Source: Escherichia coli (lineage in GTDB: Bacteria; Pseudomonadota; Gammaproteobacteria; Enterobacterales; Enterobacteriaceae). Taken from it: 2,234 nt of DNA. This document shows, piece by piece, positions 8-40 of the stretch. The translations under genes were made by a program, and so were the position numbers. The stretch lies in the NCBI RefSeq assembly GCF_003334255.1, contig NZ_QOWU01000139.1. One strand, 5' to 3'. Below the pieces are notes generated by a model. That model was not told the origin of the DNA, did not search any database, and saw only the letters and a program-made list of their open reading frames with translations. Each line of letters begins with the position of its first letter. Within the stretch, counting starts at the first letter, position 1.

Positions 8-40
8 GAAGCCTCCCGCGCACGGGTGCGGGATGGCTTC
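8..40. terminator. GC-rich stem-loop just downstream of the stop of the 51-272 minus-strand ORF; possible terminator or other structured site
   Basis: GAAGCC (8-13) pairs with GGCTTC (35-40) and CCCGC (15-19) pairs with GCGGG (28-32), giving an 11-bp interrupted GC-rich stem with loop 20-27. It sits immediately 3' of the TAA stop at 53..51 (minus strand). The U-tract is weak on the plus strand (TGGTTTAT at 47-54) and would lie outside the window on the minus strand. Confidence 0.3.

Follow-up and report, generated by a model that had tools for sequence, protein, structure and literature searches.

In phage P1, the C4 RNA reportedly blocks translation of icd, and this leads to Rho-dependent termination before the ant gene, a finding that Biere, Citron and Schuster are said to have made in 1992. 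The region concerned, immI, is that of phages P1 and P7 and comprises c4, icd and ant. In phage P4, the CI RNA terminates transcription prematurely before epsilon and the alpha replication gene, and in Gifsy-1 the transcript ends in a structured RNA, IsrJ, that lies past the antirepressor gene (PMC4825925). A class of E. coli Rho-dependent transcripts described by Dar and Sorek ends just past stable stem loops that lack U-tracts, with a mild C-over-G bias downstream of the stem (PMC6061677). Described here is a stem loop found in a 2,234 nucleotide (nt) stretch of Escherichia coli DNA (RefSeq assembly GCF_003334255.1, contig NZ_QOWU01000139.1), the whole of which is termed the window. The stem loop, at positions 8 to 40, is situated at the far end of a roughly 600-nt cassette made up of the isrK promoter, the IsrK leader RNA, the C4 RNA and ant, an antirepressor gene of 73 amino acids (aa). 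In every locus sequenced across this junction, the hairpin parts the RNA-immunity cassette, whose transcription looks constitutive, from the nickase that starts phage replication. This conserved stem loop is probably a conditional transcript-end or stability signal, and not a classical terminator or an integration boundary.

The locus can be compared with each of these systems. As judged from its sequence, a P1/P7-type immunity module (IsrK leader, leaky terminator, C4 and the a2/b2 sites) is complete inside a P2-family early operon. Shared with immI are the C4 RNA, the a1/b1 and a2/b2 sites, the position of b2 on the Shine-Dalgarno sequence of a 73-codon first gene, and a polarity logic that works via an untranslated small open reading frame (ORF). 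Unlike immI, the first gene is here itself an epsilon-like antirepressor, and a replication module, not ant, is found downstream. We know of no described P1 counterpart of the hairpin. P4 is similar in that an RNA immunity factor, an epsilon-family protein, a small ORF and a replication protein follow one another (cI-epsilon-orf151-orf106-alpha in P4). However P4 epsilon overlaps orf151, with neither a spacer nor a hairpin between them; the primase alpha and the P2-type nickase gpA are unrelated, as are orf151 and the small ORF that follows the hairpin here, termed orfX. The Gifsy-1 isrK-orf45-anrP-isrJ region also has an IsrK leader whose terminator is leaky, a C4-like RNA made by processing, and an antirepressor gene further downstream (PMC4825925), but the antirepressor proteins differ and Gifsy-1 is lambdoid, whereas the prophage here is of the P2 family. 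In addition, a comparison of the hairpin with Rfam, including isrJ, over positions 11000-14500 of the prophage locus L001 gave no match at E <= 1. Thus neither an isrJ match nor any other known RNA family accounts for the hairpin. The stem loops of Dar and Sorek are alike in having a stable stem of terminator size shortly past a stop codon, with no U-tract or A-tract, and the hairpin, 10 nt past its stop codon, has these features of the class. It differs in that the C-rich stretch here is the upstream, repressible ant mRNA and that translated essential genes follow. The class is also defined by RNA 3′ ends that map to the stem and by read-through that rises with bicyclomycin.

On the window strand, positions 8-13 (GAAGCC) pair with 35-40 (GGCTTC) and positions 15-19 (CCCGC) with 28-32 (GCGGG), exactly as given in the preliminary description of this DNA. 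One further pair, T14-A33, brings the stem to 12 base pairs (bp), with an 8-nt loop and base 34 bulged. The sense RNA is that of the - strand, which encodes the 73-aa gene. On this strand the RNA stem loop (8-40; z about -3 in folding) has a 5′ arm formed by 40-35 (GAAGCC), the bulge at 34 and 33-28 (UCCCGC), a loop at 27-20 (ACCCGUGC), and a 3′ arm formed by 19-14 (GCGGGA) and 13-8 (GGCUUC). The 3′ arm contains GGGAGG, a Shine-Dalgarno-like motif. When 60 nt of the - strand are folded with ViennaRNA, the energy is -22.0 kcal/mol, compared with -14.2 +/- 2.6 for dinucleotide shuffles (z = -3.0), and 1 shuffle in 200 is equally good. The + strand folds to -31 kcal/mol with the same program (z = -3.7), a value equalled by none of 200 shuffles. 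The stem had been thought to follow the stop codon directly; in fact a 10-nt spacer (41-50, - strand) separates the ant stop codon (51-53) from the base of the stem. The sequence of this spacer is the most variable part of the region, but each of the three hairpin types has a spacer of exactly 10 nt. There is one hairpin per prophage locus, and motif matches in IMG/VR are found solely after ant stop codons. Thus a repeated element of the REP/BIME kind is ruled out by its single-copy occurrence; no tandem repeats were found. The hairpin is a familiar kind of element, i.e., a stem loop without a U-tract at a gene end inside an operon.

About 380 loci were collected, with the antirepressor, the three kinds of orfX, E. 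coli genomes, species-representative genomes and the motif itself used as anchors. Every locus that bears ant has the hairpin at the same junction, the one exception to its full form being the deletion in L031/L257 described below, and the 31 unique variants have sense-strand energies between -18 and -25 kcal/mol. Type A, found in the window and in L002, reads GAAGCC-A-UCCCGC ... GCGGGA-GGCUUC; type B, that of phage P88, reads GGGCCUUUCCUGCA ... UGCGG-C-GGGAGGCCU. Of 16 aligned positions in the 5′ arm, 7 are different between the two types, and the differences include transversions and a register shift of 1 nt. Even so, both types fold to about -21 to -22 kcal/mol on the sense strand; on the antisense strand the energies range from -13 to -33. 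The native arm pairs give -22.0 and -20.9 kcal/mol, compared with -18.2 and -16.4 for A/B chimeras. With the 5′ half shuffled and the 3′ half kept, the native energy is reached in 1.1% of trials for the window type and in 3.1% for the P88 type. A register-corrected alignment of the two types, checked by hand, displays one compensatory pair, A-U in type A and G-C in type B. Type B needs three to four G-U pairs, which are A-C mismatches on the opposite strand. The hairpin acts as a sense-strand RNA, because these G-U pairs can form only in the sense and because the sense energy is uniform and the antisense energy spans -13 to -33 kcal/mol. The structure is real and maintained. A motif scan of IMG/VR did not find hairpin types beyond those already known.

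Sequence change is unevenly distributed. The loop and the spacer vary freely, and a 25-nt core is invariant across the approximately 380 loci. The sequence GCGGGAGGC(C)UUC(C)GCACRUCUGU is nearly invariant, and it is the 5′ arm, the loop and the spacer that change.

The sense RNA past the stem reads CGCACGUCUGUUACCGGAGGUUCUCAUG, and no U-tract is present on either strand of the extended sequence; the stem is followed directly by CGCACGUCUG in the window type and by UCGCACAUCU in the P88 type. A terminator scan of both strands, with a criterion of at least 5 T in 8 nt, calls the isrK terminator 430 nt upstream and does not call the hairpin. The classical terminator that the preliminary description had considered is therefore not borne out. 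Of the features of an intrinsic terminator, the hairpin has a GC-rich stem loop of about 5-14 bp (12 bp, -22 kcal/mol); it lacks the U-tract and is not at the end of a transcription unit, as orfX-gpA has no promoter of its own. The leader past the stem, CGCACRUCUGU, is nearly invariant; its start occupies window positions 1-7 (- strand), and it runs past the window edge to the Shine-Dalgarno sequence and ATG of orfX. A strong Shine-Dalgarno sequence is followed by the orfX start codon 25 nt past the stem, the ATG being at 11982 in L001, i.e., window coordinate -18. The orfX gene is a 138-aa ORF, and its end overlaps the start of gpA, the replication endonuclease gene. A scan for promoter-like sites between the hairpin and orfX-gpA found none. 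In P2-type phages gpA is the essential replication nickase. Because gpA is essential and lacks its own promoter here, the hairpin is not an efficient unconditional terminator, which would be lethal for the phage. Thus, with no U-tract and no promoter before the essential orfX-gpA, any termination at the hairpin has to be conditional.

The 3′ side of the cassette is informative as to where homology between phages breaks off. Phage Chuche and 34 related IMG/VR loci have an orfX that is 97-98% identical, without isrK, C4 or the antirepressor. A BLAST comparison of Chuche (L069) with the cassette-bearing L038 shows that homology resumes at the first base of the 3′ arm (L038 1762 = L069 2501), and identity to the cassette-bearing phages is 97% from inside the 3′ arm onward. 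The cassette of about 600 nt replaces 97 nt of Chuche sequence. In the leader, Chuche has GGCAGGAAGCC where the cassette phages have GGCGGGAGGCC, and the remaining leader is common to both. Folding of the Chuche sequence gives -11.7 kcal/mol for 66 nt and z = +1.0 for 121 nt, which is not more stable than expected by chance. Thus the strong hairpin is seen only with the isrK promoter cassette upstream. Other homology break-points are found at window -3, where the homology of H156 and H157 ends 3 nt past the hairpin, and at window 120-126, about 70 nt before the hairpin, where many matches begin. Because break-points are found inside the hairpin, just past it and about 70 nt before it, the hairpin is, on these alignments, seen to straddle a joint between mosaic modules. 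The idea of an element boundary thus survives in part: the Chuche joint and H156/H157 mark a mosaic module junction and the distal end of the cassette, and not the end of an integrated element, as the integrase gene and the prophage end are about 6.5 kb off. Direct repeats that would mark an integration boundary were looked for in the flanks and none are present. With no flanking direct repeats, no tRNA gene, the distant integrase gene and phage genes on both sides, a prophage or att end is ruled out.

The reading that we favor, with a probability of about 0.4, is that the hairpin is a stem loop of the Rho-dependent 3′-end and polarity kind, which closes the isrK-C4-ant transcript if ant is untranslated and lets lytic transcription pass. 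In the lysogen the isrK promoter would be active, and the C4 RNA would pair with a2 and b2 and so mask the ant Shine-Dalgarno sequence; the anatomy of these sites is observed, and the repression is inferred from it. With ant untranslated, about 220 nt of C-rich, G-poor RNA would be left naked for Rho, and transcription may halt around the hairpin and leader, ahead of orfX-gpA. The 3′ exonucleases would then trim the RNA back to the stem, which may protect the new 3′ end. If ant is translated, or if the polymerase comes from the early promoter during lytic growth, ribosomes would shield the rut-like RNA as far as the stop codon, which lies 10 nt away from the stem. This would keep Rho from loading, and transcription would proceed into orfX-gpA. 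The same 70-nt segment would also provide the stretch of homology where the ant cassette and differing orfX-gpA modules are reshuffled. Consistent with this proposal, the C-rich, G-poor ant RNA ends at the hairpin, a strong stem is seen only with the constitutive-looking isrK promoter cassette upstream, and the stop-to-stem distance is constant in all types; the Dar and Sorek transcripts, P4 and P1 serve as precedents. The ant mRNA is rut-like throughout, with 20-25 C compared with 8-12 G per 60 nt, and the C-over-G bias is strongest in the final 60 nt upstream of the hairpin.

Several observations weigh against a Rho-type stop. The 60 nt downstream of the stem have G >= C, and the C-over-G bias is upstream instead. 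Literature searches gave no usable transcript map or transcriptome data for this prophage family. The 3′ arm GCGGGAGGC is far more constant than the 5′ arm, which suggests a sequence-specific constraint beyond a pure structure model. Within types, no two-sided covariation is found, since the 3′ arm is constant, and the shuffle control carries no information on this point. By hand tally, 9 of 13 single changes keep the pairing. However about two thirds of transitions are estimated to do so without any constraint, and therefore the within-type variation is no evidence either for or against the structure. Members of the family occur only in Escherichia and Citrobacter and represent effectively 2-3 independent lineages, and the link between cassette and strong hairpin rests on one cassette-less lineage, Chuche. 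Lastly, two IMG/VR loci (L031/L257) have a natural 11-nt deletion of the outer 5′ arm. The deletion lies between ATCCCG direct repeats (slippage) and leaves the inner 6-bp stem, at -12 kcal/mol; thus the full stem is not strictly required.

The value of the hairpin is that it points to a connection, open to experimental test, between RNA-based immunity and the control of replication in a prophage family that is very common in E. coli. Should the conditional stop prove true, it would help explain prophage quiescence and the coupling of induction to replication, and the antisense-RNA immunity logic of P1 and P4 would be extended to P2-family phages. A more specific proposal, which we hold as tentative and rather unlikely in its full form, is that the hairpin is the gate of a P4-style attenuator in a P2-family phage, whereby translation of ant decides whether the polymerase passes into orfX-gpA. 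In that case a single antisense RNA would govern two things at once, derepression of the phage's own C repressor and production of the replication nickase. The constant 3′ arm and leader (GCGGGAGGC..CGCACAUCUGU) would serve as a sequence-specific signal at which the polymerase pauses or is released.

Among explanations without termination, the one that survives best, although we consider it unlikely, is that the hairpin is a messenger RNA stability or processing element only. It would block 3′-to-5′ exonucleases for the benefit of the upstream ant segment, or form a protective 5′ end for orfX-gpA after cleavage by RNase E, and would set unequal steady-state levels for the two halves of one transcript. 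A stable, GC-rich intercistronic stem that is conserved on the sense strand fits such a role, and protective structures of this sort are widespread in E. coli operons (PMC5927463). The role is also compatible with obligatory read-through to gpA, and the invariant single-stranded leader past the stem, CGCACAUCUGU, could be a cleavage site. However it leaves unexplained why the strong stem is restricted to the isrK-C4-ant cassette and why the stem always lies 10 nt from the stop codon.

It is improbable, but should be considered, that the hairpin has no function and is a fortuitous or relic structure in a linker, kept similar by recombination between mosaic modules. The break-points inside the hairpin and immediately on both sides of it are as expected from such a history, the within-type substitutions are compatible with neutral transitions, and the deletion variant L031/L257 survives. 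Between types, identity is 64-77% for the spacer, 67-68% for the ant gene and 53-55% for orfX (22% for the orfX proteins); the spacer is thus no higher in identity than ant. What such a relic does not account for is that two diverged 5′ arms each form a stem of about -21 kcal/mol with the common 3′ arm, the folds of chimeras and of shuffled 5′ halves being weaker (p about 0.01-0.03), or that the spacing is fixed and the 25-nt core stays invariant in about 380 loci beside a freely varying spacer and loop.

A weak or leaky intrinsic terminator that serves as an attenuator in the early operon is quite improbable. The GC-rich 12-bp stem right after a gene would suit it, and in P2 itself a "putative rho-independent terminator" is annotated within the early operon, ahead of the orf80-A block. 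However there is no U-tract (the first 10 nt past the stem have 2 U in the window type and 3 in the P88 type), the upstream A-tract is absent, and the scan misses the hairpin but calls the isrK terminator. The P2 putative terminator between B and orf80 (NC_001895; L150 1981-2008) resembles the hairpin in being located in the early operon, upstream of a block that ends in gene A, and there is a loose sequence likeness (GUGCGGGGCUUC compared with GUGCGCGGGAGGCUUC), with its 3′ side, GUGCGGGGCUUCUUUUU, similar to the 3′ arm here. It differs in having a weak 5-bp stem followed by CUUCUUUUU and in its flanking genes, which are unrelated, and shuffled sequences fold as well as the P2 region does (z = -0.5). 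Homology between the P2 terminator and the hairpin is unproven.

Slightly less probable still is a translational element for orfX, in which an anti-Shine-Dalgarno-like 5′ arm (UCCC/UCCU) and a decoy GGGAGG in the 3′ arm would take part. The fold would hold the 5′ arm off the true Shine-Dalgarno sequence of orfX, which lies 15-20 nt further downstream, or would form a ribosome stand-by site. Such a role would account for a sequence-specific constraint on the 3′ arm, as GGGAGG is invariant; moreover the Shine-Dalgarno region of the window-type orfX, CGGAGGUUC, nearly repeats the 3′ arm, GGGAGGCUUC, and CGGGAGG is repeated in L002. However the likeness is weak in the P88, L038 and L028 types (AGAGGA, AGAGAA and GCGAGG, respectively), folds in context neither sequester nor free the orfX Shine-Dalgarno sequence consistently, and an alternative partner for the 3′ arm was not found. 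The least probable is a DNA-level site (a protein-binding palindrome, cruciform, origin, recombination or att site): an inverted repeat does lie at a module junction, but the G-U pairing of type B and the asymmetric arm conservation are unexpected for a palindrome, the site is single-copy per prophage with no flanking direct repeats or tRNA gene, the P2-family origin is annotated inside gene A, and the integrase gene and att are 6.5 kb away.

Other roles were considered for the hairpin and its leader and were rejected. As a third C4 target, the P88-type leader offers UUCGCAC, which is similar to a2 (UUCGCAG), and the window type is unlike it; a C4 target role is ruled out, since the a and b sites lie at other positions and neither hairpin nor leader changes across at least 7 C4 specificities. 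The 3′ arm of IsrK stem 1 (ACGGGUGCCGG, 504-514) and the inner 5′ arm plus loop of the hairpin (CCCGCACCCGU, 22-32; inverted repeat I4) are complementary to each other in 10 of 11 nt. This pairing is probably a coincidence, as the IsrK side is invariant and the hairpin loop varies. A duplex scan of the early operon for a long-range RNA partner of the 3′ arm and leader gave only non-conserved GC-rich matches. A programmed frameshift or read-through signal is likewise discounted, no slippery heptamer being present before the stop codon.

The ant gene itself (51-272, - strand) is a homologue of the gene for the P4 epsilon derepression protein, and its existence, proposed at first from the reading frame, is confirmed by matches of the 73-aa protein to PHROG 3688 (1e-31) and to Pfam PF25738 Derepression (2e-6), and by the RefSeq name of the product, "derepression protein". 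Identity to P4 epsilon is 34% over 50 aa (E = 1e-8). Upstream on the same strand, the ant leader contains the C4 targets (283-327; direct repeats D5 and D6, inverted repeats I3 and I5): b2 at 283-292 (ACUAGCAAAG), which overlaps the ant Shine-Dalgarno sequence, and a2 at 318-327 (GUUUCGCAGC). The IsrK copies a1 (494-503, - strand) and b1 (478-487, - strand) are exact repeats of a2 and b2, respectively. The C4 antisense RNA (329-416, - strand) is a full-length match to Rfam RF01695, with 82.8 bits compared with a gathering threshold of 45 (E = 5e-16); its loop at 364-373 is complementary to b2 (I3, I5). The IsrK-type leader RNA (452-526, - strand) matches RF01394 with 64.3 bits, the gathering threshold being 50, and the terminator scan places its intrinsic terminator at 457-472 (- strand), followed by U7. 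A promoter-like site at 533-562 (- strand), TTGCCA with an 18-nt spacer and TACATT, would start IsrK at about 526, and it is conserved in 45 unique variants.

A second promoter-like site, TTGCCA with a 17-nt spacer and AATTAT, is found at 411-439 (- strand) and ends exactly at the C4 5′ end. Thus C4 might also be transcribed on its own, beyond its processing from the IsrK read-through transcript. A separate sequence, ACAAAAA(AA)CCGCUUGCC at window 559-575 (in the sense of the - strand), overlaps the -35 hexamer of the isrK promoter and is complementary at 15-16 of 17 nt to the 3′ half and U-tract of the isrK terminator (450-466) in all 45 of 45 unique variants. As this element is present only in transcripts initiated upstream, it is a possible promoter-specific antiterminator of early lytic transcripts.

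At least 7 a-loop/C4 specificities are found at the IsrK a1 loop (about 494-503, and the same site in L004-L235), with the a-loop variants UUUCGCAG, AUUUCCAC, AUUCUCAAC, AUUGGAAC, AUUGCAAC, AUUGAGAC and AUUCUCAC. That the C4 specificities combine freely with the types of hairpin and of orfX suggests a large number of heteroimmune variants, comparable to P1 and P7. It should be noted that RefSeq lists an "ash family protein" (205 aa; L067 4702-5319 and other records) in an alternative frame across isrK, C4, ant and the hairpin. This ORF, superimposed on RNA genes that are conserved, looks spurious.

In E. coli JNEC-KY204, a chromosomal prophage matches the window at 99.4% identity. The window corresponds to the early part of a P88-like prophage (Xuanwuvirus, P2 family) of E. 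coli. In L001 the gene order is integrase, helix-turn-helix repressor, Cox, small early genes, the window, orfX, gpA, and the capsid and terminase genes, and the early genes are all on the window - strand. Named relatives are phage P88, other Xuanwuvirus members and Citrobacter phage Shae_phiSM. The N-terminal part of ant is present in 1159 of 5426 complete E. coli genomes, including those of O157:H7 SS52 and ST131 EC958. Beyond E. coli, a scan of genome contigs of species representatives added only E. albertii and one metagenome-assembled genome (MAG) that is probably contaminated, and a word-indexed protein search, made for wider sampling, gave E. coli matches only. The MAG sequence (L153, JAIJJM010000372.1, "MAG: Collinsella sp.") is a 3.2-kb contig with an E. 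coli-type prophage segment and an identical type B hairpin, and it is most likely a binning contaminant. Finally, the window contains a 157-aa hydrophobic ORF at 653-1126 on the + strand (PHROG 6315, function unknown), convergent to the early operon. It is missing from most related prophages, which match the window in 2-3 pieces with 62-74% coverage, and it looks like an inserted accessory gene.

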